A stretch of DNA of 64,000 bases from positions 1,751 through 65,750 of the forward strand of contig JBBSML010000012.1 in the NCBI GenBank assembly GCA_038233215.1, read 5' to 3'. The notes beneath the pieces were generated by a model. That model was not told the origin of the DNA. It searched no databases and saw nothing but the letters and a program-made list of their open reading frames with translations. How positions within the stretch are numbered: position 1 is the stretch's first letter; each line of letters opens with the position of its first letter. The DNA comes from Candidatus Limnocylindria bacterium. Lineage in GTDB: Bacteria; Chloroflexota; Limnocylindria; QHBO01. Shown here in pieces: positions 8,871 through 59,500 of the stretch. The translations under genes were made by a program, and so were the position numbers.

Positions 8871-8917
8871 GGCACCGGATCCGGCGCGCCGGCCGAGACC
8901 CAGACGGGGGGGCTTCC

Positions 8918-17950: not shown

Positions 17951-18113
17951 GGAGGCGTCAGATTGGCTAAGCTCTTCCGCCTCCCTTGACACCAGCGCAC
18001 GATAGCGCAGTCGTATCTGCTTGCACCTGTCCATTCAGGCCACTGCGGACCGGTAGTGCTGCTAGAACAGCTACCGCCGGTCTAGCCTGCTGCCCCATGA
18101 CTCTGAGGCACCC

Positions 18114-20080: not shown

Positions 20081-22591
20081 GTGAAGCTTTGGCAGGCCGC
20101 CGTCAAGCGGCTGATTGACGTCGTCCTCGGCGCGTTCGGGCTCGTCGTCCTGATCCCGGTCATGGCACTCGTGGTCGTGGCGGTTGCGGTCGATTCAACG
20201 GGTCCGGTCGTCTACGGCGCGCGGCGCGTTGGCCGGCACAGGCGCGAGTTCACGATGTGGAAATTCCGTTCCATGGCCCGTGGCGCAGACAGGGTCGGTC
20301 CGGCGGTGACCGGTGCCTACGACTTCCGCGTGACGCGCGTCGGCGCCTTTTTGCGGCGAACAAAGTTGGATGAGCTTCCGCAGCTGGTGAACGTGCTGGT
20401 GGGCCAGATGTCGCTGGTGGGCCCGCGTCCTGAAGCGCCGGTCTATGTCGAGCGCTGGACGACCGAGGAACGCGAGATCCTTGCCTTCCGACCGGGCATC
20501 ACCGGACCGACGCAGATCGCCTATATCGACGAAGAGGAGCGCCTCGCCGGCGATCCGAACGCGGTGTACGAGTCCGAGCTGATGCATGTCAAGCTCGCGG
20601 TGGACCTCGACTACGTGCGCCGCTTCAGCCTGCGTGGTGACCTCGGGATCATGTGGAAGACGCTCGTCGGCATCCTGTCGGCCGGCGAACGCCGCACGAA
20701 CCGGCCGCGTCGCCGCTACACCCTGGACGAGCGACTGCGCAGTGCCCGCCTGGGGCCCATCCTGCTCGACGCCTTCCTGGCGGCCATGGCAGCGGCCCTG
20801 GCGGTGGGCCTGCGCATCGATCGCAACAACATCTTCGCCGCGGTTGCCACGTACTGGGTCCTCATCCCCCTGGCGGCCATTGTCCGGCCCGCGGGGTTCC
20901 TGATCGCCGGCGCGTACATGCGGGTCTGGCGGTATCCGACCGTCTCCGATGCAGCGCTGATCGTTGGCTCCTTGGCCGCCGGCTCGCTGATCATGACCAT
21001 CCTCATCTTCGTCGTCATGCAACCGTGGGCATTCGCCGGTTCGGTTGGCTTCCCGCGCAGCGCGCTCATCATCGAGTTCCTGGTCTCGTTCATCGTGCTC
21101 GGCGGAATCCGTTTCGCCTCTCGCATTCGCCAGGAAGGCATTGAGGAGGGGATGCCGCCGGCGAGCGCCGGGCCGCCCCGGCCGGTCTTGATCTATGGTG
21201 CCGGTGAGGCGGGAGCGCTGTTGGTTCGCGAGATGCGGCGCAACCGGTCGCTCCGACTTGAGCCGGTCGCCTTCCTTGACGACGATCCGGCGAAGCGCGG
21301 ACAACGTATCTACGGGGTCGAGGTCGTAGGCGGCGCGAAAGATCTGCCGCTCGTGGCAGCCGAGCGCGAGGTGGCCGAGGTGATCGTCGCCATGCCCCGC
21401 ATCGGCGGCGACCTGCTTCGCCAGATCGTTGCCCTCGCGGAGGCCGCGGGCGTTGCCGTGCGCACCCTCCCCGCCGTCGACGAGCTGCTCGACGAAACCG
21501 TGTCTGTGAACCGAGTGCGGCCGGTCCGCGTCGAGGACCTGCTCAGACGGGAACCAATCGCCATCCCTGAAGGACCGATGCGTTCCCTCGTCGAGGGACG
21601 AACCGTCCTGGTCACCGGCGCGGGCGGCAGCATCGGCTCCGAACTTTGCCGCCAGATCGCGTCGCTCGGCGCTCGCCGAATCGTGCTGTTCGAGCGAGCC
21701 GAGACCCCGCTCTTCTACGTCGACGAGGAGACCCGCCGGCGGTTCCCAGGCGTTGAAGTTGTTGCTGTCGTCGGCGACGTGACCGACGAGGGATCCGTGT
21801 CACGCTGCTTTGAGCGTGAGCAGCCGCAGGTCGTCTTCCATGCCGCCGCCCAGAAGCACGTGCCCCTCTCGGAGGCCAACGTCGCCGCGACGGTCTGGAC
21901 CAACGTTCGAGGGACACGCCTAGTCGCGCAAGCGGCCGTTGATATCGGCGTCGAGGCATTCATCTTCATCAGCACCGACAAGGCGGTCGATCCGTCGTCG
22001 ATCATGGGCGCCACAAAGCGCATCGGCGAAGAGCTGGTGCGGACCGCAGGCGCGTCGGCCGTCGGGCGGTTCGTGGTCGTTCGCTTCGGCAACGTGATGG
22101 GGTCACAGGGATCGGTCCTCGAACTCTTCCGGCAGCAGATCGCCGATGGTGGCCCGGTGACGATCACGCACCCGGACATGACGCGGTACTTCATGACGAT
22201 CCCCGAAGCGGTTCGCCTGATCCTGCACGCTGGCGCCGTTGGGCGTCCCGGCGACGTCCACGTCCTGAACATGGGGCAGCCGATCCGGATCGTCGACCTG
22301 GCGAGCGACCTCATCCGTCTTTCGTCACCGGCGGGGTCTCGCGACATTGCCATCGTCTTCACCGGCCTTCGTCCTGGCGAGAAGCTGGAAGAGACATTGT
22401 TCGGGACGGATGAGGAAGCGCTCGAGACGGATTCGCCGTTCCTGCTGGTGGCGCGCCTTGGTGACGAAGGGCCCCTTGGCTCAACGAACCAATTGGCGGC
22501 GCGCCTCGAAGCACTGGCTGGCGAAGGACGGGATGCCGAGTTGCGCGACCAGCTAGGCGGGACCGCCGCAACGAGCGCCGCCCGAGGATGA
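20081..22591 (+). CDS. fusion protein: N-terminal small phosphoglycosyl transferase (Bac_transf/PglC-WbaP catalytic domain) + 4-TM region + C-terminal CapD/PglF/WbpM-type NAD-dependent nucleotide-sugar 4,6-dehydratase
   Basis: N-terminus: [17 protein letters not shown] (hydrophobic helix), [35 protein letters not shown]-terminus: [44 protein letters not shown]. Confidence 0.8.
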
Positions 22592-43395: not shown

Positions 43396-43624
43396 TGACG
43401 CAAACTGCGATCGTCTTTAGGCGACGCCCACTTGAGGCGAGTCGTCTGGTGGGCGAAGGGCGCACGTGAATGCATCGAGCTTCCCGTCGGGACGATACAC
43501 CTCAGCAGGAGCAAGCCGGGCGATCGGCTGTGGGCTAGTGAACGCGGGATCGTTGGAGGGTGTCCTTCCGTAAGCCGGTAAGCCCGGCCTGCAGGGGTAT
43601 GGAACTCGAACCGCAGTTGACCGC

Positions 43625-45265
43625 CTAGGGACCCGTGACACAGAGATTGCCGGGTGAACACGCACGATCAAGTCGAAGGACTCCTCGCCGCTCGGTGTTG
43701 CTGGCCGTTAATCTGAAGACAGACGAGTCGAACTTCAAGGTCCATGACCACAGCTGGCCGATCTCGGCGGCGGAGGTGGAATTTCCCTTGAAGTCTGCAT
43801 TGTCGCTCGGGGCATACTGCACGCCTGCAAGAAAAATGTTTCCTCCCCCTGTGAGAGTCAGCGTGGAGTTCTCGCTGTCCTTGCAGTCGGGTGGAGTGGT
43901 CAGCCCCACGATGCAGTTGGGGTCCCGACGCACCATCACCGTCAAAGGGAGAGGACGGTCTCCAATAGTCTGTACCGGGCCCGTCGGTCCAGTCGCCGCC
44001 TTGGCCTTCTTGCCCGACGAGTTGAGGTAAGCGCTGCCGTAGTTCATCGCCAGCAGCGAAGTTGCGGTCTTGGTCGTGAACCTCCCAGGCTCCCGCCCCT
44101 CGCTGCTCGCTTCCTTGAAGACGAGGGCCACGCCGGCCTGATCTGGCACGAAGCCACCAATCAGACTCTCCGAGACGGTTACTCCAAAGTCGAAGAAGTA
44201 GACGCCTGGCGCAAGGAGGTACGCCGTTTGGGTCGTCGCGCTGACTACTTGATACCGATAGACGCCCGGTCGCAAGCAGACTGCGGTCACCTTGAGGGGA
44301 TCACGAATGAGTTGGTTCGTCTTTAGCTCACGGTAGGAGTCCGGGACGGACGCCTGAAGGGCGCTGCAACGCGCCGCATAGTTCGCGTCATAAGCCGGGT
44401 GTCCGACCTTCGTGCCCATTGCCTCAGCCTCGTCGGCGTACCGATATCGCGGGTCGGTGGGAGCGTCCGGGATCGTGTAATTCGGATCATCTGTGTACGT
44501 GGCCGTCTGGACCCCGGTCGGATTCCCGCTCCACAACTTATACGGGTCGTAGTAGTACAGGTTGTAATCAGGATCAAGGATTAGTTGAGAGAATCCCGCT
44601 CCTCCGCCGCCGCCATAGAACATGTTGGTGTTGGTGACGACGTCCCCGTTCGCGACGTATACCTTGCTGCCGCCGGTGATCTGGAGGTTTTTCTCGTTTG
44701 CGTCGCTCGCATTATTGCGAGGGCTTGGTGGTCGCAGGGCGACGAGGGCATACTGACGAGCGTGAACCACACCTGCGACAGACGTCGCCCGAACCTGCCA
44801 TTGGTTCTGACCCAAGATCCGGCCAAACGTGAGTTTGAAGGAAGGCTGCCAGACGCTTACCTGGACCGCACGGGAGGACTCGCAGTCCAAGCAGCTCGGC
44901 GAGGGCGTGATGATGGACACGCGATAGTCCGTCCCCGACATCGCGCAGCCGCCAGCCGTAAGGCAGTCGCCGGCAGGTCCGGTCTTGCTTGGACCGCCGA
45001 GCTGCGAAGCGAGAACGTCCCACGCGTGCTGACGAGCCTTGGCTCGTTCGGTTTCCGTGGGCAAGGCCCTGGTCCCCGGCACCTGTAAGTCCTGAGCACC
45101 GGCAAGAGAAGCTGCGTCCGCCACGGACCGTTCCCAGCGTTCCGCCATGTAGGCAGCGCTGACGTCGACCGCGAGGGCGCTGAGACCTAGCAAGACAGTC
45201 ATCATGAGCGCCGCAAGGACCAGTACCTGGCCTCGCTGAGATTGAGAGAATGCTACGTTGGTCAT
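43625..45265 (-). CDS. large TadG-like (Tad_N domain) secreted pilus-associated protein
   Basis: QRGQVLVLAALMMTVLLGLSALAVDVSAAYMAER...ADAASLAGAQDL; 546 aa. Confidence 0.65.
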   Translation of the reverse strand: MTNVAFSQSQRGQVLVLAALMMTVLLGLSALAVDVSAAYMAERWERSVADAASLAGAQDLQVPGTRALPTETERAKARQHAWDVLASQLGGPSKTGPAGDCLTAGGCAMSGTDYRVSIITPSPSCLDCESSRAVQVSVWQPSFKLTFGRILGQNQWQVRATSVAGVVHARQYALVALRPPSPRNNASDANEKNLQITGGSKVYVANGDVVTNTNMFYGGGGGAGFSQLILDPDYNLYYYDPYKLWSGNPTGVQTATYTDDPNYTIPDAPTDPRYRYADEAEAMGTKVGHPAYDANYAARCSALQASVPDSYRELKTNQLIRDPLKVTAVCLRPGVYRYQVVSATTQTAYLLAPGVYFFDFGVTVSESLIGGFVPDQAGVALVFKEASSEGREPGRFTTKTATSLLAMNYGSAYLNSSGKKAKAATGPTGPVQTIGDRPLPLTVMVRRDPNCIVGLTTPPDCKDSENSTLTLTGGGNIFLAGVQYAPSDNADFKGNSTSAAEIGQLWSWTLKFDSSVFRLTASNTERRGVLRLDRACSPGNLCVTGP

Positions 45266-45846
45266 TGGGGTGCCTTGGGTTCCATGCGGAGTTGAGTCGA
45301 CGAGGTCACGCAGTAGCCTGAAGATCCCTGACAGTTACCGATGAGAGCCTGAAGCCCGGGCAGGAATATCGGCACGACGTGGCTGACCTTCACCCGGATC
45401 GACCAGGGAATTCTGCCGTCAGCCGGCGGACAGTCACTGGGGAACAATGCAATTGGCGGACTGCCCCACTGCCAATCGGCGGCAGGCTGCTGTCCGGAAG
45501 GGAACCAGTCGACACCGACACCGCGCGCACCCCCTGACGTTGACGAGCCAGCGCTTGCCCATGGGGTCCAACCAACTAGCGAAGCTCGGCCGGCCTGCTC
45601 GTTGGCCTTAGAGCTCACGTTCGCACGAGACGCAGCGGAGTCGCACGGAGCAAGAGGTTGCGTCACTGCCCAACGTGCTGTCTCCCGGGCTACCTCCGTA
45701 ACCGCGTTCTGCGTCCAGAGAATCACCGAAAACTGGACCAGGCCGCCTACGACGAGCATGAACAGCCCGATAACAAGAGCGAACTCGACCATCGCCTGTC
45801 CTCGGGAACTGCAACCGTTGGCAAGAGGCTTAGTCCAAACTCTCAC
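45262..45846 (-). CDS. TadE-like minor pilin
   Basis: ...SSRGQAMVEFALVIGLFMLVVGGLVQFS. GTG start at 45844-45846 overlaps the upstream stop as GTGA. Confidence 0.55.
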   Translation of the reverse strand: MRVWTKPLANGCSSRGQAMVEFALVIGLFMLVVGGLVQFSVILWTQNAVTEVARETARWAVTQPLAPCDSAASRANVSSKANEQAGRASLVGWTPWASAGSSTSGGARGVGVDWFPSGQQPAADWQWGSPPIALFPSDCPPADGRIPWSIRVKVSHVVPIFLPGLQALIGNCQGSSGYCVTSSTQLRMEPKAPQ

Positions 45847-46412
45847 TGGTCTTCCTGTGGCTCCATGCGGAACTGCGAGGTCGCGGTAACCGGGAAGGTG
45901 CACCCGGAACTTTGGCACGTGATAGAGAGTGGCAGGTACTCCAGCCCCGGAATGAACACTGGAACGCCGTGGGCCAACCGCACCGTGACGTACTCGGTTA
46001 CCCGGTTGTCGAGCGGACGGACACACGCCCCACCACCCTCTCGCGACCACACGACCTCTACCCCGCCATCCGCATTCGGAGCACTAGCGGGGAGCTGAGT
46101 GTTATCCGGGTATGCCATGAAGACGTTCCAGCCGCTGGAGTATCCGAGGATCCCCGCCTCAGAGGCGAAAAGATTGGCTTGAGTAAGGGGTTGGGGAGGC
46201 GCGTCCGTCGCCGCCTTGGCGCATGGGTCACGCGTTTGTGTAGCTGCCCAACGTCCGGTGTCCCTGGCAACCTGGACCAGCGCGTGCCTAGCGGCAAAGA
46301 TCGCCCCTACTTGGACGACTCCTCCGATCAACGCCAGCAGAACTGGTAGGACGATTGCGAATTCGACGAGGGATTGCCCCCGCCGCGGTTTGGTGAACAT
46401 TCGATAGGACAT
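45843..46412 (-). CDS. TadE-like minor pilin
   Basis: MSYRMFTKPRRGQSLVEFAIVLPVLLALIGGVVQVGAIF. Confidence 0.65.
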   Translation of the reverse strand: MSYRMFTKPRRGQSLVEFAIVLPVLLALIGGVVQVGAIFAARHALVQVARDTGRWAATQTRDPCAKAATDAPPQPLTQANLFASEAGILGYSSGWNVFMAYPDNTQLPASAPNADGGVEVVWSREGGGACVRPLDNRVTEYVTVRLAHGVPVFIPGLEYLPLSITCQSSGCTFPVTATSQFRMEPQEDQ

Positions 46413-46939
46413 CTGTACTGGGGGAAGACGGCAATCGTACCTGGCCTACCTTGCAATCCCCCTAACAAGCCGGTCCTCGTCACCTACCTACTTTCACGGC
46501 ACGGCTTACCGCTCCGTGTGCCGACTATCAAGTAGCAGATGGGGTCCTCAGGACGATTTCCTTAGCTTCGCAGGCGTCGAAGTCCGCCGCTCACGCGGGC
46601 TGAATCCCGGACTATGGTAAGGATTGGCAGAGTCATGGCGGCGCGCCAGAATCGGCAATATGAAGAACTGGGCTCGACGCTTGCTTTCCGCCACGGTTTG
46701 GGCCTTGGCGATCTCGACTTGGGGATCGATTGGACACCACTTACTTGGTACGCCGGATCTCGGGCCAGTACTACCGTTGGCCGTCGGCCTAATTGTCGTC
46801 GGCTGGCCCCTTGGGGCGGCGTATCGCAACCGAATCTCCACCACACCACCGATCTCCGCCATGGGCGGTACGCGCGGTGCGTAGGGCGGCCGAAGTGGCG
46901 ACCTCTAGATAGCTAAGCGCCGGCCCACAGGACCGAGAC

Positions 46940-47781
46940 TCAGGCCTCCAGGGTAGCGGTGATGATGATGTCGTCGACCACGATGACCGCCGGTGGCGGT
47001 CCCGATGCCACTGCAAAGGCACCGCGCAGGTTGTTAAGCCAAGCCACCCGGTTGAGCCGGTGCTGCTTCGTCGTCGGTCGCGTCCGCACGAGCACCGAGG
47101 ATAGGGGCAGCCCAACCGGCGCGACAGCCCGTTGCTCGATCAGCTCGGCCTGGTGGTAGCCGCGCGCCGCCAGCCGCGCGGCGTGAACGGGAACCGGCAC
47201 CAGCGCGGCCGCGGGACCCGCAATCGGCAGCAGCAAGCGCAGCGCGGGCAGTGCCGCATCGGCGAGGGGGGCGCCGGGCGGGAGACGCCGGCGTACTTGG
47301 GCGCCGCGAGCGCGCGACGCATCGGTCCTTCGTAGGCGAAGGCAGCGATGGCGAAGAGGAGCGCGTCACCGACCACAACGCCGGCATCGGGCGCGACGAT
47401 CGGTCGCGTGGATCCAGCGGTGTCCGGAAGCACGCGGGGCAGGCGGCGCAGAGGAGCGCGCCCGACCGAACCAGCCGGCGCAGGCGGGAGACAGGAGCAG
47501 GTCCAGGAGTCGCATCGGCCTCCAACGGCACGTGTCGTTGACGGGTCCAATCCTTGCGTGAATCTAGGCGCGCATACGTCCTGCACGATCAATCTCGCCA
47601 AGTAATCAACGTCCGCTTCAGCGGCGGCGAGGAAGGTCTCGGTTCGGAATCCGGCCGAGGCGCTCTTGCGTTGTACTGCCCTGCGATGATGCGCCGATGA
47701 CTGGTGCGGCCCGTTACATCCGAATCGAGAACATGACCCGGGGAACGGTCGTGGGCGAGCGGGTGCGCGTAGCCAGGTCAA
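46940..47781 (-). pseudogene. decayed, frameshifted paralog of comF (ComF/phosphoribosyltransferase family)
   Basis: Two frames give VAPDAGVVVGDALLFAIAAFAYEGPMRRALAAPKY... and ...GYHQAELIEQRAV...RTRPTTKQHRLNRVAWLNNLRGAF...VIVVDDIIITATLEA. These match the intact comF at 48544..49191 (about 80% nt identity over the aligned part) but lack the last about 20 codons. Confidence 0.55.
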
Positions 47782-48543: not shown

Positions 48544-49191
48544 CTAGACCTCACGCGCCAGCGCGAAGCCGTACACCGCTGAGCAACCGGCCTGCCGCAG
48601 GACCGATGCGCACGCCTCCAGCGTCGCCGTGGTGGTGATGATGTCGTCCACCAGGATGGCCGTGAGCGGCACCGCCCCGGACGCCTGAAACGCGCCGCGC
48701 AGGTTCGCCAGGCGCGCCGTTCGGTTGAGCCGATGCTGCTTCGTCGTCGGTCGCACGCGCTCGAGCGCCAGAGCCATGGGAGTTCCGAGCCGGCGTGCGA
48801 TCAGCTCCGCCTGGTTGTAGCCGCGAGCCCGCTGACGTTCGCGGTGCAGCGGCACCGGTACGAGCACCGCGGGTCCCGTGGTGCGCAGCAAATTGTCCAA
48901 CGCCGGCGTGGCGGCCCGCGCCAGGATCGGCGCAAGGCGAGAGGCGCCTCCGTATTTCAGCGCCGCCAGGGCGCGGCGCATCGGTCCTTCGTACGCGAAC
49001 GCTGCCACGGCGAGGGCCAGCGCATCACCCACGACCACGCCGGCATCCGGGGCCAGGAAGCGATCTGCAGGCCGTGAAGGCACCTGCAACCCGTTCAGGC
49101 ACCGGGGACATAGCAGTGCGCCAACTCGGCCGCAGGCGGCGCACGCCGGCGGCATGAGGAGATCCAGCAGCGACACGATGGTCCCCAGCAT
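48544..49191 (-). CDS. comF: ComF-family protein (competence-associated phosphoribosyltransferase-like, N-terminal Cys4 zinc ribbon)
   Basis: CAACGRVGALLCPRCL...; PRTase loop ILVDDIITTTATLEACASVLRQAG. Confidence 0.75.
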   Translation of the reverse strand: MLGTIVSLLDLLMPPACAACGRVGALLCPRCLNGLQVPSRPADRFLAPDAGVVVGDALALAVAAFAYEGPMRRALAALKYGGASRLAPILARAATPALDNLLRTTGPAVLVPVPLHRERQRARGYNQAELIARRLGTPMALALERVRPTTKQHRLNRTARLANLRGAFQASGAVPLTAILVDDIITTTATLEACASVLRQAGCSAVYGFALAREV

Positions 49192-49531
49192 GCGTTGTGG
49201 CCATTACCGCGCGCGTACCGGGTACTTATCGCGGTGCTTGGCACTGGGTGCGCGGTCGGCGGACATCGGTCCTTATCAGGCTCGTGGCTGTCGCGTCTCG
49301 GGGCGTCCGGAACCGAAATTTGGCTGGGGCGCAAGCAACTACGAAGTTGGGCCCCGAAACCGTCCCCGATTTGCCGCACGTGCAAACCATGGGCCTGTTG
49401 GGGGTAGAAACGGGCGGATTCGGCCTCTTCTTCGTAGATACTTGCGCTGGGCGCAAACGGCGCGTAGTGGGCGCGCGGGTGTAGCCTAGAAGGCCATTCC
49501 CGACCACACACGCAGCGGAGGGCAGGGAAGA

Positions 49532-50125: not shown

Positions 50126-50262
50126 TCAGAAGATGGCCGGCAGAATCAGCAGCGCCGCCACGACTCCGATCAGCGCCACGAAGAAGACGAGCAGCCCCAC
50201 GCCAAGGAGGTCGGTCGTCGGCGTCTGCGGTTCGGGCGATCCCGTCGGGTCATCAGGCATGG
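50126..50262 (-). CDS. possible 45-aa single-TM peptide
   Basis: MPDDPTGSPEPQTPTTDLLGVGLLVFFVALIGVVAALLILPAIF; weak, supported only by hydrophobicity. Confidence 0.2.
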
Positions 50263-50324
50263 CGCGCACCCTAGCACGGCCCGAGCCCCGACGGCGCCTG
50301 ACGTGGCCGGCCTCCGCTCCGCGA

Positions 50325-51248
50325 GTGGGCCTGCACATCGGCGTGGCGAACGGGCTGATGCGGGCGGCGCGCCGGTCTCGCCAGATTGGCGCACAGGCGC
50401 TCCAGATCTTCAGCGACAACCCCACCGCCTGGCGTCGCCGTCCCGAACCACTTCCCGACGCCCCGGAGTTCATCACCTACTGCTCCCGCGAGGGAATCGC
50501 GCCGATCTCGATCCACGCCTCCTACCTCATCAATCTCGCCGGCTCCGCCGAGCCCTTCGCCACGCAATCCCGCGCCGGCCTGATCTTCGAGATGCAGCGT
50601 GCCCCGATATACGGGGCGACGCTGGTCAACACCCATATCGGGTCGCATCGGGGGGTCGGCGCGGACGTCGGCCTGCGACAGATCGTGGAGTCGGTGCGCG
50701 CCGTCCTGGAAGCCTCGCCGCCATCGGTCCGGCTGGTGCTCGAGAACTCGGCGGGCGGCGGGGATCTCCTCGGCTCTCGGGTGGAGGAGCTGGCGGCCAT
50801 CCTGGAGGGAGTGGGGTCCGTGGCCGGGGCGGATCGGCTCGCGTTCTGCCTCGACACCGCGCACCTGTGGGGTGCCGGCTATGACATTGCTTCCGTTGCG
50901 GGGACGGGTGCCGTGGTCGATCGGTTCGATGAGCTGATCGGGCTGGACCGCCTGGCCCTGGTCCACCTGAATGACTCGCGATCGTCACTGGGCTCGCGGA
51001 CGGATCGCCACGAGCACGTGGGGGCGGGGCAGATCGGTCCTGTGGGTTTGGGTGCGTTTCTGCGCGATCCGCGGTTGGCGCGGCTGGCGTTCATCATGGA
51101 GACACCGGGCGGAGACGAGGGCTACGACGCCGTCAACCTGCGACGCGCGTTTCAGCTGTGGGGTGGCGCCGATGCTCTGCCGGTGTTGCCGCCGAAGGCC
51201 TTTCGAACCAACCGCCGGTCCACGCGGATGGGGCCTCGGGTGGATTAG
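50325..51248 (+). CDS. nfo: endonuclease IV (AP endonuclease family 2, TIM barrel)
   Basis: GTG start (VGLHIGVANGL). IHASYLINLAG, LVLENSAGGG, CLDTAHLWGAGYD, HLNDS. Confidence 0.8.
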   Translation: MGLHIGVANGLMRAARRSRQIGAQALQIFSDNPTAWRRRPEPLPDAPEFITYCSREGIAPISIHASYLINLAGSAEPFATQSRAGLIFEMQRAPIYGATLVNTHIGSHRGVGADVGLRQIVESVRAVLEASPPSVRLVLENSAGGGDLLGSRVEELAAILEGVGSVAGADRLAFCLDTAHLWGAGYDIASVAGTGAVVDRFDELIGLDRLALVHLNDSRSSLGSRTDRHEHVGAGQIGPVGLGAFLRDPRLARLAFIMETPGGDEGYDAVNLRRAFQLWGGADALPVLPPKAFRTNRRSTRMGPRVD

Positions 51249-51477
51249 CTGGGGCGAACTGAGCGCCGAGCCGCGCTCTTGGACAAATGCCGCGTGCGTG
51301 GTCATTAGCCGATAGATCGGGCGGGGTGCGGCCATATCCACGCTCAGCGTCACGAGTCACGAAGGCTGTTCTCGCGCTAATGCTCACCTTGGCGGCAAAA
51401 GACCGAACGGGTGGATCGGCGCGGTCAGAGGCTCACCATGACGGCAGATGACCGAAACGCGCGCCCCGCACACCGAG
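51249..51477. repeat. repeated intergenic element family L, copy 1 (forward B-type core at 51281-51313, reverse A-type core at 51431-51462)
   Basis: ggacaaatgccgcgtgcgtggtcattagccg, and gctcaccatgacggcagatgaccgaaacgcg, which is the reverse complement of the L2/L3 core. Confidence 0.6.
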
Positions 51478-51930
51478 TTAGCGCCCGTTTGAATACCCGT
51501 TCGAGGCCGGGTGCGACCCGTTTCCGGTGCCATTGCCCGTGCCGTTGGTGTGGTTGCGTCGTGAGCGGACAGCGATATATGCCTGCATCAACTCGCGAAC
51601 ATCCGCCTCGGTGAGGGAGTCATCACCGCGCAGGGCGTGCTCAACGCGAGTCGCGGGCATGACCACGCGGGAGCTCACTGCGGAGAAGTAGGCGGGACCA
51701 TCGGCCTCATCGTGGATCTCGCGGAGGCCGCGGGCGAGCTTGGTGGCCGTGCCCAGCGACGGCATCCGGTCACCCTTGATCAACCGGGAGATCGTGGAAT
51801 GATCCACGCCCGACTGGAGCGCCAAGTGGCGCTGGCTCATCTTCTTTTCCTTCAGCTGGCCACGCAGCCAGGCGTTGAAGGATCGCGGCGTCTGCAGCGT
51901 CATCTGCGACCTATATGCGCTGTACGCCAT
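51478..51930 (-). CDS. XRE-family helix-turn-helix transcriptional regulator with N/G/T-repeat C-terminal tail
   Basis: LRGQLKEKKMSQRHLALQSGVDHSTISRLIKGDRMPSL; tail NHTNGTGNGTGNGSHPASNGYSNGR. The long ORF extension to 53130 is rejected. Confidence 0.6.
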   Translation of the reverse strand: MAYSAYRSQMTLQTPRSFNAWLRGQLKEKKMSQRHLALQSGVDHSTISRLIKGDRMPSLGTATKLARGLREIHDEADGPAYFSAVSSRVVMPATRVEHALRGDDSLTEADVRELMQAYIAVRSRRNHTNGTGNGTGNGSHPASNGYSNGR

Positions 51931-52035
51931 CGGTACGGGTGTGCCGATGGTGCATACGAGCAACCGCAGCATCCATTGTGGACGGCTCCGCCTCAATAGG
52001 AGGAAGGTACCGCGCCTCTTGGCGACCCCTGCGAG

Positions 52036-52216
52036 TTGCATCAGGTGCACGTAACGACGAAGAAGGGACCTGATCGGCCCACATTTGGGCCATGGTTTGC
52101 ACGTCACGCACATCCAGGACCGTCTGGGGCCGAATCGAGCCACAACGTGGTCGTTACGTGCACCCAGCGCAAAACCGAGCCACAACGTGGTCGTTACATG
52201 CGCCCAGCGCAAAACC
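52036..52216. repeat. inverted-repeat element family T, copy A: GGTGCACGTAACGAC (52044-52058) and its reverse complement (52150-52164) about 90 bp apart; the second arm is tandemly duplicated as a 40-bp unit (52137-52176, 52177-52216; 2 mismatches)
   Basis: Seen directly; lies upstream of the XRE regulator gene. Confidence 0.6.
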
Positions 52217-52244
52217 GCGGCCCAGAAGGAACAGAAGACCCGGG

Positions 52245-53306
52245 TTAGCCGGGGGAGACCACCCTGGCTCCATGGGCGCGCCGGACTTTTTGGCTGAAGG
52301 CGTAGAGGATGCCGCCCAGGATGATGACCGTCACGATCGTCAGGCCCCGGTCCACGAGGGCGACCGCGGCGGCAGGTTCCTCGGGAACGCCGTACAGGAA
52401 TAGGACGCCGATGATGCCGGCCTCCACGAAGCCGAAGCCCGCGGGCGTCAAGGGAATGGCAGTCAGGAGGGCGGCCGCAAGGGCCACGAAGACCGATGCG
52501 CTGATTCCGAGACCCACCTCCGGCAGGTCCAGCGCACGGATGACGAAGTACAGGCGCGCGCCCTCCAGCACCCAGATGCCGACGGTCAGCGCCAGGACGA
52601 CCGGGGCGCTGCGGGCCGACAACGCCCCGGTGCTGCCTTCCTGGAATCGAATCCACAGTTCGCCGATGCGAGCCGGCAGCCAGCGCCCGATGCGCGCGCC
52701 GTACAGTCGCAGCCCGGCCAGCATCAGGATGAGCGTGATGGCCAGCACGAAGCCGATGACAAAGAGTGTGTCGATCTCCGGGCGAGATCGACCCCGGAAG
52801 GACCAGAAGCCGGCGGTCAGTGCCAGTACGGCGATGACGATGATATCGGCGATCCGCTCGATGAAGACCGTCCCCACCGTCCGGGAGATGGAGGCGGCGT
52901 AGTTCGCACGCAGCAGGTACGCCCGATACAGGTCGCCCAGCTTGGCCGGCACCAGGCAGTTGACGAACCACGAGAGGAACAGGATCTCGGTCGCGTCGCG
53001 GAAGCGGACCGGCATGGCGCTGCGCCCCAGGACGTAGCGCCATCGGAAGCCGCGCAGCGGGAAGGTCGCGTAGTACGCAAGGAACGCGAGGCCCAGGAAT
53101 CCGACGTCCGCCTGTCCGACCAGGCGCCACACGAGGCCCCAGTTGAAGTCGTCGCCAAAAATGACGCGCGAGAGGAAGTAGAGGAGGAGAAGGCCGAACA
53201 CCAGCGAGCCGATCGTCCGCACGTTCAAGATTCGGCTGCGGAGCGAAACCTGGTCGGCCGTGAACTCGTCGGCGTTGCGCTCCGAATCTGCTATCGGCTC
53301 ACCCAT
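52245..53306 (-). CDS. lysylphosphatidylglycerol-synthase-TM-region-like (UPF0104/flippase-like) membrane protein
   Basis: 8 TM helices; LSWFVNCLVPAKLGDLYRAYLL; start MGEPIADSE. Confidence 0.6.
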   Translation of the reverse strand: MGEPIADSERNADEFTADQVSLRSRILNVRTIGSLVFGLLLLYFLSRVIFGDDFNWGLVWRLVGQADVGFLGLAFLAYYATFPLRGFRWRYVLGRSAMPVRFRDATEILFLSWFVNCLVPAKLGDLYRAYLLRANYAASISRTVGTVFIERIADIIVIAVLALTAGFWSFRGRSRPEIDTLFVIGFVLAITLILMLAGLRLYGARIGRWLPARIGELWIRFQEGSTGALSARSAPVVLALTVGIWVLEGARLYFVIRALDLPEVGLGISASVFVALAAALLTAIPLTPAGFGFVEAGIIGVLFLYGVPEEPAAAVALVDRGLTIVTVIILGGILYAFSQKVRRAHGARVVSPG

Positions 53307-54183
53307 CCGTATCGGGCTCTTTGGAGGGCAGGTCGGCGCTGGTCGGGCGCTTGACGGGCTCCTGACGCACGACCTCCGGCTCCTGCGGACCCAGGATCGG
53401 GCCGGTAGCGGTGCGCTTGCCGCGCCATCCGTCGAACGAGTTCTTCCAGACTGCCCAGCGCGTGGTGGCGTGAATGAGGACAGTGGACCGACTGGCATGC
53501 CAGTCGTTATCGGGCAGCAGGATCTTCAGCTGCTCGGCGGTTTCGAACGCGGGGAGGGCGTTGAAGGCCATCGCCACCTCGAAGCGCGAATGGGAGTCGG
53601 AGGCCGCGATACCGGGAATCCCGTAGCGGTGCGCGAATTCGGCTGCCTCGAGGTTGTGGCGCTGGAGCGCGACGCGACAGTTGAAGACCTCGATCATGTC
53701 GATCTTGCCGGTGTCCGCGAGGTTGCGCAGCGGACCGTCCCGGATGTGCGAGCCGCGGAATGGATCGAACGGGTGCGGGATGCTGACGAGGCCACCTTGC
53801 CGATGGATCTCATCCGCGGTCTCCTTGGCGCTGAGACCGCGCGGGATGGTCCTGGTCAGGAAGATGCCGACCACCTCTCCGTCCGCGGTCGAGACCTCCT
53901 CGCCCAGGATGACGGTGAGCTCGTCCTCCAGGCCCAGCTCGCGCACCTTGTCGCGTACCGCAATCGCCCCTTCCACGTTGTTGTGATTCGTGACCGCGAC
54001 GTGCGTCAGGCCGCGTTCGATCGCGGTCCTGATGAACCTCTCCTCGGGCAGGATCGAGTCACGACTGAACCGGGTGTGAATGTGGAAATCCACGAAGACC
54101 CGGTCCATCCGCGGCTTGCCCGTTCCTTCCCGCTGCTGCATGAGCGAGGCGCGAAGGTCGCCCGCGGATGCAGCGATGGTCAC
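53299..54183 (-). CDS. PHP-domain metal-dependent phosphoesterase
   Basis: FVDFHIHTRFSRDS...HVAVTNHNN...SIPHPFD. Confidence 0.65.
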   Translation of the reverse strand: MTIAASAGDLRASLMQQREGTGKPRMDRVFVDFHIHTRFSRDSILPEERFIRTAIERGLTHVAVTNHNNVEGAIAVRDKVRELGLEDELTVILGEEVSTADGEVVGIFLTRTIPRGLSAKETADEIHRQGGLVSIPHPFDPFRGSHIRDGPLRNLADTGKIDMIEVFNCRVALQRHNLEAAEFAHRYGIPGIAASDSHSRFEVAMAFNALPAFETAEQLKILLPDNDWHASRSTVLIHATTRWAVWKNSFDGWRGKRTATGPILGPQEPEVVRQEPVKRPTSADLPSKEPDTDG

Positions 54184-54190
54184 GGGTGAC

Positions 54191-55186
54191 TCACGAGTGG
54201 CTCACCAGGCTCTTGCGATACGCGCCGAAGTGCTCCAGCGCCATGCCGGTGCCCACGGCGACGCTGTTCAGCGCGTTCTCCGCGACGTGGCACGGGATGC
54301 CGGTCACCTGCGTCAGCAGCTTGTCGAGGTTCCTGAGCAGTGAACCGCCGCCGGTCATGACCATCCCCTTGTCGATGATGTCGGAGCTCAGCTCGGGCGG
54401 CGTCTGCTCGAGCACGTTGCGGACCGCGGTGATGATCGCCTGGAGCGGCTGCTCGATCGCCTCGGTGACCTCCGTGGAGCTGATCGGAATCGTGCGGGGC
54501 AGGCCCGCGATCATGTCGCGGCCCTTGACCTCCATCCTGAGTGGCTCGTCCATCGGCAAAGCGGATCCGATCTGGATCTTCACCTCCTCCGCCGTCCGGT
54601 CGCCGATCATGAGGTTGTACTTGCGCCGGATGTAGTTCGCGATCGTCTCGTCGAAGCGGTTGCCGCCGACCCGCAGGGACTCGGAGACGACGATCCCACC
54701 CAGCGCGATCACCGCGACCTCGCTGGTTCCTCCACCGATATCGATGATCATGTTTCCGCTCGGTCCCGAGATGGGGACGTTTGCGCCGATGGCCGCCGCC
54801 AGCGGCTCTTCAATCAGATACGCATCCTTCGCGCCGGCCTTGAGGGCAGCGTCCCGGACGGCCCGTTTCTCGACGCTGGTGACCCCGGAAGGGACGCTGA
54901 TCATCACGTCTGGTTTGAAGAGGCGCACGCGGGCAACTTTGTTGATCACGTAGCGCAGCATCGCTTCGGTGATGAGGTAGTCGGCGATGACGCCGTCTCT
55001 CATCGGGCGGATCGCCCGGACATTGCCGGGGGTGCGGCCGATCATCTCTCTCGCTTCTTCGCCGACGGCGACGAGGCGGTTGTCATCCTCACTGATGGCC
55101 ACCACGCTCGGTTCGTTCAGCACGACGCCCTTGCCCTTGACGTACACGAGGATATTGGCGGTGCCGAGGTCAATGCCGATCTTCAT
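54191..55186 (-). CDS. mreB: rod shape-determining actin homolog MreB
   Basis: [30 protein letters not shown]...[11 protein letters not shown]. Confidence 0.9.
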
Positions 55187-55450
55187 GCGTTCATGCGTGC
55201 GCTATCGGTCCAATTCGAGCGTGTGGGGAGCCCGCAGTATACCGACACCGCTCCCAGGGTCCGGTGGGGGCTCGCGTGTAGACATTTGCCCGTCATGGCG
55301 GCATGTGTCCGCATGGGGGTGCGCGTTCGGTCATCTGCCGTGATGGTGGGCAATAGCCGAGGTTCTGGGCTGCATGCGGCCGGATTCACGCTCCCGTCCT
55401 CGGTGGCTTCGGGTTCGTTCCGCGGCTAATGCCCGCCATGGCGTCATCTG
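55187..55450. repeat. repeated intergenic element family L, copy 2
   Basis: Core GCGTTCGGTCATCTGCCGTGATGGTGGGCAATAGCCG (55323-55359) plus CGGCTAATGCCCGCCATGG, both shared with copy 3. Confidence 0.6.
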
Positions 55451-56194
55451 TCACAACGGTGACGCGTGCCGGCCAGCCACTCCGCCCCTGACGCGCTGCG
55501 CTGGGCTCCCGGGGCCACCGGTGGCTGGCAGGCTGACGAACCACAACGCTCCGCTGGGGCTGACCGCCGGGCGCCGAAGCCACGAGATGCATGTCCGACC
55601 GCGAAGACTGAACCGATCAAAGAGGGTATCGAGGTTCGCGATCCGGCGCCGAATGGTGCGGTCATCGGCCATCACGATGGCGGGGACGACGGCCCGAACC
55701 TCCCAACCGAGTTCGCCGGCCACGTGTCGGGCCAGCCGTGTCTTCACGTCGAGCGAACCGAGCAGTGCCTGGACATCGACGAGGTCGGTCTTGATCTCGA
55801 TCACCAGCAGCGTGCCGGTCATTGGATGCCACGCAAGAAGATCGATCCTGCCGCGCTCGCCATATCGGCTGTAACTGACCTCCACCCGAACGATCCAGCC
55901 CCAGCGCTCGAGGCGGCGCTTGACGCGGGCACCAAGGACTGCATGACCGGCGTCGAGAAGCCGATCCAGCTCTGGCCCGTTCCAGAACATCCGCACGTCG
56001 AGCCGGGCGCCCAATGCGCCGATGATCGCCTCGACGGCGGCCATCTTCAGACGCCGCGCCTGCCCGCGTTCGAGCGACGAGACGGCTTGCCGGCTTACTC
56101 CGGCTCGGGTGGCCAGCACCGTCTGGGTCAGTGCCTGACGTACCCGGAGCATCCGAGCGAGCCGGCCAAGCCGCTCCGCATTCACGTTCCTCAT
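55451..56194 (-). CDS. XRE-type HTH protein fused to a PD-(D/E)XK nuclease-like domain
   Basis: HTH LTQTVLATRAGVSRQAVSSLERG. Restriction-endonuclease-like core GRIDLLAWHPMTGTLLVIEIKT (D...E.K). The C-terminal about 40 codons run through repeat element L2. Confidence 0.5.
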   Translation of the reverse strand: MRNVNAERLGRLARMLRVRQALTQTVLATRAGVSRQAVSSLERGQARRLKMAAVEAIIGALGARLDVRMFWNGPELDRLLDAGHAVLGARVKRRLERWGWIVRVEVSYSRYGERGRIDLLAWHPMTGTLLVIEIKTDLVDVQALLGSLDVKTRLARHVAGELGWEVRAVVPAIVMADDRTIRRRIANLDTLFDRFSLRGRTCISWLRRPAVSPSGALWFVSLPATGGPGSPAQRVRGGVAGRHASPL

Positions 56195-56259
56195 GATGGA
56201 CGGGGACGCTTACCGCGTGATTACCGGCCGCTTACCGGCGAGCGGATCACAATGGACAG

Positions 56260-57081
56260 ATGCCTGAAGGCGACACGATCTTCCGTACCGCCGAGGTGCT
56301 GCGTGCCGCGCTGGTTGGTCGACGAATCACGGCAGCGCGCGCGCAGCCCCGGCCAGGCTTGCGGCGGGTGCCGGACCTGTCGCGGCTGATCGGCGCAACG
56401 GTGGCAAACGTTGAAGCGCGCGGCAAGCATCTGCTCATCGGCTTCGATAACGGGTTGACAGTGCGCAGCCATCTGCGCATGAGCGGGTCATGGCACCGAT
56501 ATCGCGCCGGCGAGCCATGGAGCCGTCCGCTGCGCCAGGCCAGCGCCATCCTCGAAACATCGGAGTCCGTGGCGGTGGCCTTCAACACTCCCGTCGTGGA
56601 ACTGTTGACGGAGTCCGATCTTCGCCGGTCCCGGGCGTTGACCACGCTCGGGCCGGACCTGCTTTCAAGCGTCTTTGACGTTGACGAGGCGATGCGGCGA
56701 CTTCGAGAACGCGACGGCCACGAACTAGGGAATGTCCTGCTCGACCAGCGAGCGGTGGCGGGAATCGGAAACGTCTACAAGAGCGAGGTCGCGTTCCTCG
56801 AGGGCCTGGATCCGTGGGGGCCGATCGCAGCCTTCGAGGATTCGGAGCTGATCAATGCCCTCCGCACCGCCCGGCGGCTGCTCCAGGCGAATACCAGGGG
56901 CGGAGCACGGATCACCACCGGAAGCCCCGTCCGCGGCCAGGCACTCTGGGTCTACGGTCGGGCGGGCCGTCCATGTCGCCGATGCGGAACGCAGATCCAG
57001 GTTCGCCGTCAAGGGGAGCTCGCTCGACAGACGTACTGGTGTCCCCACTGTCAGCCGCACCGCAAACGCCCCGTCATGTGA
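56260..57081 (+). CDS. nei: Fpg/Nei-family DNA glycosylase (endonuclease VIII-like)
   Basis: MPEGDTIFR N-terminal Pro/Glu catalytic dyad; H2TH; C-terminal zinc finger CRRCG...CPHCQ. Confidence 0.8.
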   Translation: MPEGDTIFRTAEVLRAALVGRRITAARAQPRPGLRRVPDLSRLIGATVANVEARGKHLLIGFDNGLTVRSHLRMSGSWHRYRAGEPWSRPLRQASAILETSESVAVAFNTPVVELLTESDLRRSRALTTLGPDLLSSVFDVDEAMRRLRERDGHELGNVLLDQRAVAGIGNVYKSEVAFLEGLDPWGPIAAFEDSELINALRTARRLLQANTRGGARITTGSPVRGQALWVYGRAGRPCRRCGTQIQVRRQGELARQTYWCPHCQPHRKRPVM

Positions 57082-57371
57082 TGCGGCCCAGCCTCAGATG
57101 TTTCCACGGCCGTTCCCGTAGCGGGCGGTCGGCGCATGAGCCGGCGGCATGAGCCGGCGGCATCACGCAACCGCGTTCGGTCATTTGCCGTGGTGGTGAG
57201 CATTAGCCGGAAACAGAGTCCACCACGGCGGCTGGTGAGCGTGACGGCGGCCGATCCACCGCTGTTCAATCGGCTAACGCCCGCCTGGACAGCAGGTGTC
57301 CGAAGGCTGATGGTTGAGCGGACAAATGCCGCGATGGTGGTCATTTGACCGAAGAATTTCCACCGCGGCAG
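57082..57371. repeat. repeated intergenic element family L, copy 3, plus a 13-bp tandem duplication gcatgagccggcg x2 (57134-57159)
   Basis: Core GCGTTCGGTCATTTGCCGTGGTGGTGAGCATTAGCCG (57173-57209); GGACAAATGCCGCGATGGTGGTCATTTGACCG (57320-57351); CGGCTAACGCCCGCCTGG. Confidence 0.6.
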
Positions 57372-58649
57372 CTATGCCTCGATGCGGTTGATGTTGGCGC
57401 CGAGGGCGACGAGCTTGGCTTCGATCTGCTCGTAGCCGCGATCCACGTGCTCGATGCCGGAGATGACCGACGTGCCCGTGGCGACGAGCGCGGCGAGGAT
57501 GAGGGTGGCGCCCGCACGCAGGTCCGCGATCCCGACCTCGGCACCGTGAAGGGGCGTGGGACCGGAGATCCTGGCGCGCCGGTCGTCGAGAAGCTCGATG
57601 TCGGCGCCCATCCGCGACAGCTCGCGCAGGTGGTCGAGACGGTCCTCGAAGATCGTCTCGTTGATGGTCGAGATGCCATCCGCTTGGGTGAGCAGGACTG
57701 AAAGGGGCGCCTGGAAGTCGGTGGCGAATCCGGGATAGGGATCGGTGCGCAGGTCGACGGCGCGCAGGGAACCCGGGTCAACGGCGCGGACGGTGAGGGT
57801 GGAGGCGGCCGCATCGGCCTCATAGGAAACGTTCATGCGATCGCAGACTTCCAGGAACGCGCCGAGGTGCGCGGGATTCACGCCACGCAGGGTGACCGAC
57901 CCGCCGGTGATGGCGGCCGCGATGGCGAAGGTTTCGGCCTCGAGCCGGTCGCCGATCACGTGGTGCTCGACCCCGCCCAAACGATCAACGCCCTCGATCT
58001 CGATGCGGCGCTCCTCCGTGCGCTCGATCCTGGCGCCCATGGAGCGGAGCATGGCAATCAGGTCGTCCACCTCCGGCTCGAGCGCCGCGTTGTCGAGGAT
58101 CGTCGTTCCGCGGGTCAGCGTGGCGGCCAGCATCGCGTTTTCGGTGCCCATGACGGTGACAATCGGGAACTCGATGTGCGCCCCTCGAAGACCGTCGGGC
58201 GGCGCCGCCGCAAAGTAGTAGCCGTTGCGATACACGATCGTGGCGCCCAGGCGCTCCATTGCGTGGACGTGCAGGTCGACCGGGCGCCGTCCGATTCGAT
58301 CCCCGCCGGGATTCGGCAGGATCACCCGGCCGAACCGCGCCAGCATCGGTCCCAGGAGGATGAAGCTGGCCCGCATTTTCATGGCCGCGTCGAGCGGCAC
58401 GAACGGCCACGGCGCTTCGACCGCGCGCAGCTCCAGCGCGTCGCCGTTCACGCGCCGAACCTCGAAACCGATATCGGTGAGGACCTCGCGCAGAATGGCG
58501 ACGTCGCTGATCTTCGGCACGTTGCGCAGCGTGCACGGTTCGTCGGTCAGGACGGCCGCGGCCATCATCTTCAGGACCGCGTTCTTGGCGCCGGCGATGC
58601 GCACCTCGCCGGAGAGCGGCACGCCGCCCGTGATCACGAACTTCTGCAT
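57372..58649 (-). CDS. murA: UDP-N-acetylglucosamine 1-carboxyvinyltransferase
   Basis: MQKFVITGGVPLSGEVRIAGAKNAVLKMMAA...; full-length EPT fold. Confidence 0.9.
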   Translation of the reverse strand: MQKFVITGGVPLSGEVRIAGAKNAVLKMMAAAVLTDEPCTLRNVPKISDVAILREVLTDIGFEVRRVNGDALELRAVEAPWPFVPLDAAMKMRASFILLGPMLARFGRVILPNPGGDRIGRRPVDLHVHAMERLGATIVYRNGYYFAAAPPDGLRGAHIEFPIVTVMGTENAMLAATLTRGTTILDNAALEPEVDDLIAMLRSMGARIERTEERRIEIEGVDRLGGVEHHVIGDRLEAETFAIAAAITGGSVTLRGVNPAHLGAFLEVCDRMNVSYEADAAASTLTVRAVDPGSLRAVDLRTDPYPGFATDFQAPLSVLLTQADGISTINETIFEDRLDHLRELSRMGADIELLDDRRARISGPTPLHGAEVGIADLRAGATLILAALVATGTSVISGIEHVDRGYEQIEAKLVALGANINRIEA

Positions 58650-59267: not shown

Positions 59268-59349
59268 GCGCCGATGCTACCGCAGCGGCCCACCATTGGC
59301 GCGATGCCCCTCCCGTACTGGCTGACGCGCTTCAATCTCGGATTGTCCC

Positions 59350-59500
59350 GCGCTTTGCGCCGGGTGCACGTAACGACCAAGATCGGGCGCTTATTGCGTC
59401 AAATCGGCCGGAACATGCCCAGTATTTGCACTACGCGCACACCCTGGTCAGCAAAACGAGGCAAAGTCGTAGATACGTGCACCCGGTGCAAGCGCCCACC
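59350..59500. repeat. inverted-repeat element family T, copy B: GGTGCACGTAACGAC (59363-59377) and a degenerate reverse-complement arm (59466-59483), flanked by TGCGCCGGGTGCA (59356-59368) and the perfect palindrome TGCACCCGGTGCA (59478-59490)
   Basis: Seen directly; the interior shares tttgcac..cgcgcaca with copy A. Confidence 0.55.

Follow-up and report, generated by a model that had tools for sequence, protein, structure and literature searches.

Repeat units in the window

The question raised by this locus was what kind of element accounts for a group of similar intergenic sequences, designated family L, at three sites within a 64-kb stretch of DNA from Candidatus Limnocylindria (Chloroflexota). 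The whole of this stretch is referred to here as the window, and homologues of its Fpg protein placed the organism in Ca. Limnocylindria. An initial annotation, made from the sequence, had suggested small-RNA genes, mobile repeats of the MITE or REP type, or a shared regulator-binding module, and all of the strings quoted in it were present at the positions given. Nine copies of a unit of about 35 nt (TTCGGTCAnnTGCCGnnnnGGTGrGCAtTAGCCG) were found in the window, confined to three spacers at 51270-51460, 55279-55464 and 57168-57352. When three mismatches were allowed, a degenerate pattern of 30 nt yielded eight sites against 0.03 expected, all eight of them inside these spacers, and a strict 34-nt core matched only at 55326-55359 and 57176-57209 (0 expected in the window). 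The ninth unit (55281-55317) was added by an nhmmer profile (E=0.0023), which detected nothing convincing in the 64 kb outside the three spacers. A covariance model, R1, matched the same three loci only in the 64-kb window. The previously noted absence of the family from the first 46 kb was thus borne out by pattern, profile and covariance model alike.

Two blocks that had been regarded as separate proved to be a single unit in inverted orientation, the second block (CGGCTAAYGCCCGCC..) repeating the inner half of the first in reverse complement. The repetition itself was real, but the repeat did not extend over the whole 230-290-nt spacer; approximately 180 nt in all is repeated, and what is left of each spacer is locus-specific (e.g. 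57082-57167).

Composite architecture of the elements

The units form part of a core composite of approximately 135-145 nt, in which a left arm, a centre of about 65 nt and an inverted right arm follow one another, the arms being about 35-37 bp long. Between 0 and 4 extra arm-like units of about 35 nt are attached to the composite with a period of 49 nt, and attachments of one to four such units, or of whole extra elements, are frequent; each window copy of about 180 nt consists of the composite and one such extra unit. In an alignment of 23 copies the central heptamer CACGCTC was nearly invariant (columns C70-C76 invariant or >=90%) and more conserved than the arms, of which some positions, such as CA..TG and GCATTAGCCG, were also invariant. 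The ends of the unit consensus read ..GCATTAGCCG and TTCGG..; a GTAG/CTAC tag at the unit ends was absent from the consensus, and CGTC occurred only inside some arms (TGCCGTC).

The core composite of the first element, W1, lies at 51270..51415 on the + strand, as indicated by alignments and by R1 (127.7 bits on + vs 54.7 on -). Its left-arm unit L, a variant GGACAAATGCCGCG..GGTCATTAGCCG, was found at 51275..51312 (+) with the degenerate pattern and nhmmer, its central CACGCTC at 51339..51345 (+) from the 23-copy alignment, and its right-arm unit R at 51374..51410 (-) from inverted-repeat, pattern and nhmmer matches. The initial annotation had correctly recorded an inverted block and a forward variant in its copy at 51249-51477, but had overlooked the unit at 51374-51410. 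The extra unit of W1 (51423..51457, -; pattern and nhmmer) follows 49 nt past the right arm, and this module is repeated three times in L039 and L022.

In W2, a quasi-palindromic extra unit at 55281..55317 (-), detected by nhmmer, stands head-to-head with the left arm; L024, L020 and L028 also have this module ahead of their left arm. The core composite of W2 occupies 55318..55464 (+; 130.8 bits on + vs 65.7 on -) and has orthologous copies in relatives, and its CACGCTC is located at 55387..55393 (+) by sequence and alignment.

The core composite of W3 (57168..57312) was assigned to the - strand by its centre. The covariance model scored 100.6 on + vs 99.0 on - in the window; the orthologues L039:7388-7533 and L039:7167-7312 scored higher on -, and CACGCTCACCAG on the - strand of W3 matches L020 and L024. 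By sequence and alignment, the heptamer lies at 57237..57243 (-), so that the + strand reads GAGCGTG. A quasi-palindromic extra unit at 57317..57351 (+; pattern and nhmmer), which adjoins the murA stop codon, fits the unit profile in either orientation. All three copies in the window are old and mutually divergent, with no sign of recent transposition here.

Gene context and orientation

The gene context was as first described, with two copies at convergent junctions and a third reaching the 3′ end of an HTH ORF. The convergent junctions are nfo(+)/XRE-HTH(-) for W1 and fpg(+)/murA(-) for W3. W2 is situated between the start of mreB and the 3′ end of the HTH ORF 55451-56194, whose stop codon is supplied by the right arm. 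XRE-HTH genes adjoin two of the three loci, and most copies of the family lie directly 3′ of stop codons. At the convergent junctions the centre was in sense orientation to one neighbour, and next to mreB it was antisense to the genes on either side. Where neighbouring genes are co-directional its orientation was mixed (about four antisense, one sense), with flank orientations that are rough, as they derive from a GC3-based gene caller not accurate enough to give an exact coding fraction. A link to base-excision-repair genes (nfo, fpg, and nth in L006) was considered; other copies flank unrelated genes, and the association was therefore taken as coincidence.

Occurrence in relatives and metagenomes

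All window copies fall between 51.2 and 57.4 kb, and none lies in the other 58 kb. This clustering would agree with chance or a purely local duplication within a 6-kb stretch, with no wider family behind it, and the initial annotation had allowed for these being the only copies. However, the composite was also found beside different flanking genes in further MAGs and in metagenome contigs, and the pattern count was far above that of shuffled sequence. A chance local duplication is therefore refuted, with hardly any probability left to it. The L-centre-R(-extra) architecture was seen at other loci in the Limnocylindria MAG L006 (3′ of nth), in the Chloroflexota MAG L015 and in about 12 soil metagenome contigs. 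When a collection of genomes was scanned with a 17-base-specified pattern, chance-level singletons and two real Chloroflexota relatives were obtained, and no match to the family came from viral contigs, searched with two patterns, or from plasmids and phages.

Both convergent junctions were found filled in some genomes and empty in others. The genes fpg and murA overlap or are 12 nt apart in L040-L043, as opposed to 290 nt here and 576 nt in L039, which carries two elements; nfo and the HTH gene overlap in L042 and are separated by 48 nt in L043, compared with 229 nt here. The relatives with empty junctions are more distant ones and keep the same genes, HTH genes included. Module numbers differed between relatives that are 94% identical, and tandem arrays were present in L022 (four units at a 49-nt period) and L040 (three full elements at about 150 nt). 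In L017, synteny breaks off precisely where a W1-type copy has its left edge, a 230-nt deletion variant distinguishes L029 and L033 from L032, and in L037 an unrelated repeat occupies the same spacers. Orthologues of W2 upstream of mreB were found in L028, L039 and L040, and in degenerate form in L043. This copy has been kept at one site in relatives with Fpg identities as low as about 80%, a persistence that could instead signal retained function. The analysis establishes that the sequences are repeated and built from modules, that they are dispersed to unrelated loci and inserted at sites whose orthologues can be empty, and that their copy number varies.

Folding and conservation of the arms

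An interrupted arm-arm helix of about 30 bp is possible and was used by the minimum free energy structures of W1 and W2. The arms paired in 71.5% of cells vs 32-39% when slid, and a few column pairs covaried (31-128, with GC 15 and UA 4; 32-127, with GC, GU, CG and AU). Between W2 and its orthologue in L028, G-C was seen replaced by A-U and U·G by U-A. The possible helix, the covarying pairs, these replacements, the position of most copies just 3′ of stop codons and the known RNA-level activity of REPs (PMC3733652) would be in keeping with structured RNAs, i.e. sRNA genes or cis-acting 3′-UTR stabilisers or terminators, in which the arm-arm hairpin and central loop are functional and dispersal is secondary.

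Other results, however, spoke against this explanation. Arm covariation was barely above that of shuffles (score 0.172 vs 0.146, 7/500 shuffles), and with this weak covariation the arms are conserved as sequence rather than by covariation. From 12 copies RNAalifold recovered nothing but the arms, and from 23 copies no consensus structure, and the mismatches were balanced (G·T 52 vs A·C 42), with no strand-specific wobble signature. Fold z values of the three window elements as RNA were -0.87, -0.83 and -2.5. Rfam 15 gave no match at the gathering score in the 64 kb and none of relevance at E<=10 in 51000-57600. The promoter scan remained at shuffle level and yielded no promoter-like site in the region, and the three terminator-like sites there compare with 3.0 expected by shuffle, only one of them (57238-57220, -) being inside an element. 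Considering also the mixed orientation of the centre relative to its neighbours, a structured RNA appears unlikely, and the sRNA genes proposed at the outset found little support.

As DNA, the three full elements gave hairpin z values of +1.0, -2.75 and -2.5, a hairpin being modestly favoured. Among the nine window units, L and R units were not palindromic (z about 0, ranging from -1.0 to +0.9). Only the extra unit H (z -3.9) and unit G (z -2.2) folded, and the only clearly significant self-fold was that of the W3 extra unit 57317..57351 (z -3.9).

Arms conserved in sequence with no strong covariation, together with the invariant CA..TG and GCATTAGCCG and the nearly invariant heptamer, might also indicate a platform for a host DNA-binding protein, either nucleoid-associated or a regulator. 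The units and CACGCTC would then be putative sites under selection and the adjoining XRE-HTH proteins candidate binders. The fixed 49-nt phasing of the extra units, the XRE-HTH genes next to two of the three loci and the mreB-upstream copy, which L040 has kept and L043 still has in degenerate form, are compatible with such a role. A regulator module, which the initial annotation had also considered, fits poorly, because at two of the loci convergent genes meet with their 3′ ends and there is no promoter to regulate. Moreover, relatives possess these genes too, HTH genes among them, yet their junctions are empty or, in L037, hold an unrelated repeat; copies in other genomes are adjoined by unrelated genes, and close relatives differ freely in module number. 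A binding platform is accordingly judged improbable.

Search for signs of mobility

Target-site duplications were searched for at 13 x 13 terminus offsets in 23 copies, a scan limited by the age of the copies and by attached extra units that blur the termini. No recurrent 2-5-bp repeat was found, the best result being 5/23 (3 bp). A regex for HUH...Y was negative for a RAYT-like protein in six frames of 388 kb, a result that is not conclusive with so crude an expression. No transposase Pfam was present among the called genes in the syntenic loci, and no parent IS with matching ends was found in the window and the related loci examined. An integron attC site was rejected: the ends 5′-GTTCGG...CCGAAC-3′ are of opposite polarity to 5′-RYYYAAC...GTTRRRY-3′, and the flanks are syntenic housekeeping genes. 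An IS91-type GTTC/CTTG target in the left flank was likewise dismissed, as the bases in question belong to the inverted repeat and have their complement on the other arm.

Nature of family L

Family L is probably a lineage-specific, non-coding, mosaic intergenic repeat of the REP/BIME/REPIN type, possibly MITE-like, in Candidatus Limnocylindria. To our knowledge, no such repeat family has been described in this lineage. Among the options first put forward, a MITE- or REP-like repeat is thus the one supported, by the occurrence at unrelated loci, the empty sites and the varying module number. The element would be non-autonomous, like REP doublets (REPINs), BIMEs or MITEs, and a protein encoded elsewhere in the genome may recognise its conserved arms and, probably, its central heptamer. 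Copies would be placed into spacers free of genes, for the most part where convergent genes have their 3′ ends, and slippage or recombination between units might then alter the module number and occasionally delete or rearrange the flanks.

There is also a slight chance that CACGCTC and the non-palindromic arms, with neither tag nor target-site duplication, represent an undescribed system of repeat mobilisation or repeat binding. This might be REPIN-like, with a domesticated single-copy enzyme outside the RAYT groups, or a host nucleoprotein platform fixed upstream of mreB. Markedly expanded intergenic spacers have been reported for some Limnocylindria lineages (PMC13212565), and such a system, if true, could help explain them. 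If a cognate enzyme were found, the Chloroflexota would be added to the groups known to have REPIN/RAYT-like or TIR-repeat systems.

As it stands, the mosaic repeat is an ordinary type of genomic feature. For an abundant uncultured class of soil and freshwater, family L provides a searchable definition, comprising unit consensus, composite anatomy and covariance model. Such repeats break MAG assemblies, the elements inflate spacers (fpg-murA 290-576 nt when filled vs 0-12 nt in relatives), and they mark sites of rearrangement and deletion.

Comparison with known systems

The features of a structured ncRNA, namely a structure supported by covariation, strand-specific G·U tolerance and consistent orientation to transcription, were not displayed by family L. 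With the TIRYT/TIRtrons (PMC3733652) it shares moderately abundant, non-palindromic inverted units in dimers and clusters, in phyla outside the Proteobacteria, but the transposase gene whose flanking defines those systems was not found, and family L has no GGGGWSAS motif. The BOX elements of Streptococcus pneumoniae (boxA, boxB n times, boxC) likewise contain one module of about 45-50 nt in variable tandem copies, here a 49-nt unit present 0-4 times; sequence and host are unrelated, however, and the variable module of family L is an arm variant outside the inverted arms.

Similarity to MITEs with long terminal inverted repeats (Correia/NEMIS of Neisseria; ERIC/IRU of enterobacteria) is closer. 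These are also non-coding elements of 100-200 bp with inverted termini of about 26-37 bp and a conserved core, and they too are inserted into spacers, can fold into long hairpins and leave empty and filled orthologous sites. Of the features that define MITEs, family L possesses terminal inverted repeats and small non-coding size; it differs in having no target-site duplication at the tested termini, a frequent tandem terminal module and no parent IS found.

From the REP doublets/REPINs and BIMEs of Enterobacteria and Pseudomonas (PMC3733652; REPIN-RAYT, PMC3116915), family L differs in its unrelated sequence, its host from an uncultured Chloroflexota class, a CACGCTC centre more conserved than the arms, and the absence of a GTAG/CGTC tag and of any RAYT seen. 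Its L and R units are not palindromic, and the self-palindromic stem-loop typical of a REP unit is seen only in units H and G. REP families comprise dimers 20-100 bp apart, whose spacers can be conserved, as well as trimers and clusters, and are located 3′ of genes (PMC3733652). Like these, family L consists of extragenic units of 20-40 nt, mostly 3′ of genes, in a mosaic of unit subtypes; it lacks a target-site duplication, is lineage-specific and persists vertically at some sites. As in REPIN-RAYT systems, the repeated entity is an inverted doublet capable of forming a hairpin, although with modest thermodynamic support, and the units occur in multiple copies as inverted pairs with spacers of 20-100 bp, as trimers (dimer plus singleton) and as tandem clusters.

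Distribution and anatomy of Family L

Family L is real and non-random. The strings quoted in the initial annotation were found at the positions claimed for them. A strict 34-nt core matched the window (G+C 65%) only at 55326-55359 and 57176-57209, where no match was expected, and a degenerate 30-nt pattern allowing at most three mismatches had eight sites (0.03 expected), all within the spacers 51249-51477, 55187-55450 and 57082-57371. A profile built from these eight units recovered the same eight at E-values of 1e-9 to 3e-7 and added a ninth at 55281-55317. It gave no convincing match in the other 58 kb of the window, and a full-element covariance model agreed with it on this distribution. 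The reported absence of the family from the first 46 kb was thus borne out, the profile being convincing at the three spacers only. Both of the sequence blocks described earlier were present, but the second, once reverse-complemented, corresponds to the inner half of the first, and one unit (51374-51410) had been overlooked.

At each locus the element is a composite of a left arm (consensus TTCGGTCAnnTGCCGnnnnGGTGrGCAtTAGCCG), a centre of about 65 nt, an inverted copy of the unit as right arm, and one extra unit, which is more palindromic than the arms and sits about 12-14 nt outside one of them. Copy W1 comprises a left arm at 51275-51312 (+ strand), a right arm at 51374-51410 (− strand) and an extra unit at 51423-51457. 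In W2 the extra unit (55281-55317) precedes the left arm (55323-55360, +) and the right arm (55423-55459, −), while W3 has arms at 57173-57210 and 57270-57307 and its extra unit at 57317-57351. Alignment with copies from other genomes (23 copies) revealed a nearly invariant CACGCTC in the centre, in which G, C and C were invariant and the remaining positions at least 90% conserved. The element can be assigned a polarity from this motif, namely plus in W1 (51339-51345) and W2 (55387-55393) and minus in W3 (57243-57237); the latter is consistent with the strand preference of the W3 orthologues in the syntenic relative L039.

Genomic context

W1 lies between an nfo-like AP endonuclease gene (50133-51248, +) and an XRE-HTH gene (51478-51903, −), and W3 between fpg/nei (56260-57081, +) and murA (57372-58649, −); from the order and strands of these genes, both copies are at convergent junctions. 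Genes for an LPG-synthase-TM protein and a PHP phosphoesterase are listed between the XRE-HTH gene and mreB (54191-55186, −). W2 lies between the start of mreB and the 3′ end of the ORF of a 247-aa HTH_31 protein (55451-56194, −), whose stop codon falls within the W2 right arm. The initial annotation had described this context correctly, with two loci at convergent junctions and the third reaching the 3′ end of an HTH ORF.

The HTH_31 ORF has an N-terminal XRE HTH, to which alone Pfam and PDB matches were obtained, and its C-terminal half contains, as judged by eye only, a PD-(D/E)xK-like GRIDLL...VIEIK (D...EIK) motif; in relatives the low-complexity C-terminal tail and the length (157-236 aa) are variable. 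CCCGCAGTATACCGAC (55230-55245; TATACT on the − strand at 55240-55235), which precedes the mreB start by about 50 nt, was kept in the relatives L037 and L040 despite divergence elsewhere in the spacer, and is a candidate −10 region of mreB; about 40 nt separate it from the W2 edge.

Several other features were also observed. A second, unrelated repeat, similarly built, occurs at 52028-52212 and 59347-59491 and partially at 49353-49404 (six pattern matches, 0.72 expected). Its inverted arms with GGTGCACGTAACGACC lie about 105 nt apart in two spacers, one between the XRE-HTH and LPG-synthase genes and one upstream of atpC, and the copy at 52133-52212 has its arm duplicated as a 40-nt tandem. It could be a further mobile repeat family or represent operators of the adjoining XRE regulator. 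The locus-specific portion of the fpg-murA spacer contains a 13-nt tandem, GCATGAGCCGGCG, twice (57134-57159), with three to four imperfect copies in L039. The segments 46958-47399 and 48631-49058 (repeat families D1, D4 and D8), about 1.67 kb apart and 78-88% identical, are probably tandem paralogous genes. No typical high-GC3 ORF was called by a GC3-based gene caller in 15059-18113 and 43396-46939 (3-3.5 kb each), which could reflect atypical codon usage, or foreign or non-coding DNA. A 65-nt direct repeat (71% identity) was seen at 45631-46273.

Occurrence in other genomes and at orthologous sites

A scan of a genome collection, source genome not included, gave 14 matches, which were chance-level singletons except for those in two MAGs, one of Candidatus Limnocylindria (L006) and one of Chloroflexota (L015). 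The L006 element directly follows an endonuclease-III-like gene and matches W2 throughout; the match extends to the centre (GATTCACGCTC) as well as to the end (TGTCACAAC). Of 20 metagenome contigs, about 12 showed the architecture of left arm, centre, right arm and, in some, extra unit; L022 carried four units in tandem with a 49-nt period, equal to the spacing of the W1 right arm and extra unit. The window itself was assigned to Ca. Limnocylindria by its Fpg homologues.

Relatives retain the gene order nfo-HTH-LPG-PHP-mreB-HTH2-fpg-murA. In L039 (94% Fpg identity) all three spacers contained Family L with module numbers unlike those of the window, i.e. three extra units at the nfo-HTH site and two full elements in a 576-nt fpg-murA spacer. 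L040 (83%) had a copy upstream of mreB, three full elements head-to-tail (12756-13204) and a further one at 20598-20743, and in L043 (80%) a degenerate copy persisted at the mreB site. Elements were missing from the fpg-murA junction of L040-L043, where the stops overlap or are 12 nt apart, and from the nfo-HTH junction of L042, where the genes overlap, and of L043, where it measures 48 nt, indicating that the window copies are insertions relative to these relatives. In L037 (88%) spacers of similar size were occupied by another repeat, the 21-nt palindromic TTCGCACGCTGAGCGAGCGAA. Several copies of this repeat, in both orientations (5161-5382, 8845-9284 and 10817-11026), occupy the same three spacers as Family L in the window, junctions that are empty in more distant relatives, and its core CGCTCAGCG/CACGCT is similar to the Family L centre.

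The contig L017 also has a W1-type copy. The sequence to the right of this copy is orthologous to the window but a different gene lies to its left, placing a synteny break exactly at the left edge of the element (compared with window 51249-51275). The metagenome variants L029 and L033 differ from the L032 locus by a 230-nt deletion, which removed the 3′ end of the upstream gene and most of an element. The deletion and the synteny break suggest that Family L repeats are rearrangement sites.

RNA or DNA element

The Rfam and folding checks proposed initially were both carried out: Rfam gave no match to Family L, and the folds of the three spacers were not unusual (z −0.87, −0.83 and −2.5). RNAalifold found only an arm-arm helix with one covarying pair in 12 copies and no structure in 23 copies. 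A hand-specified 36-pair arm helix was paired in 71.5% of cells versus 32-39% in slid controls, and its covariation score, to which the tool's caveats on related sequences apply, was 0.172 versus 0.146 in shuffles (reached by 7 of 500). Arm mismatches were balanced (52 G·T, 42 A·C), so that neither strand bears an RNA-type wobble signature. Single left and right units folded no better than shuffles, and among the window units only extra unit H did so clearly (z −3.9). A scan of the region detected no sigma-70-like promoter, and terminator-like sites were no more numerous than in shuffles (3 against 3.0 expected), only one of them falling inside an element (57238-57220, −). The centre also showed no consistent orientation with respect to the adjacent genes. 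Taken together, these results count against a dedicated structured RNA, making an RNA element improbable, and favour a repeat at the DNA level, with arms maintained by sequence recognition. A protein-binding platform is likewise regarded as unlikely.

Relation to known repeat families

Family L is probably a mosaic repeat of intergenic regions that is specific to Limnocylindria and belongs with the REP/BIME/REPIN (or MITE) elements. The MITE- or REP-like option is thus the best supported of the three offered in the initial annotation, the RNA and binding-platform options being minority readings. No target-site duplication was detected at 13 × 13 terminus offsets in 23 copies, no transposase Pfam in the syntenic loci, no HUH...Y signature in 388 kb of sequence by a crude test, and no Family L match in viral contigs, plasmids or phages. 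The units lack two of the features that define REPs, self-palindromy and a tag, neither GTAG nor CGTC being present. Family L is nevertheless similar to REP/REPIN/BIME families (PMC3733652) in its dimer, trimer and cluster organisation, its conserved spacer and its lack of duplication, and it resembles these more closely than classical DDE-type MITEs.
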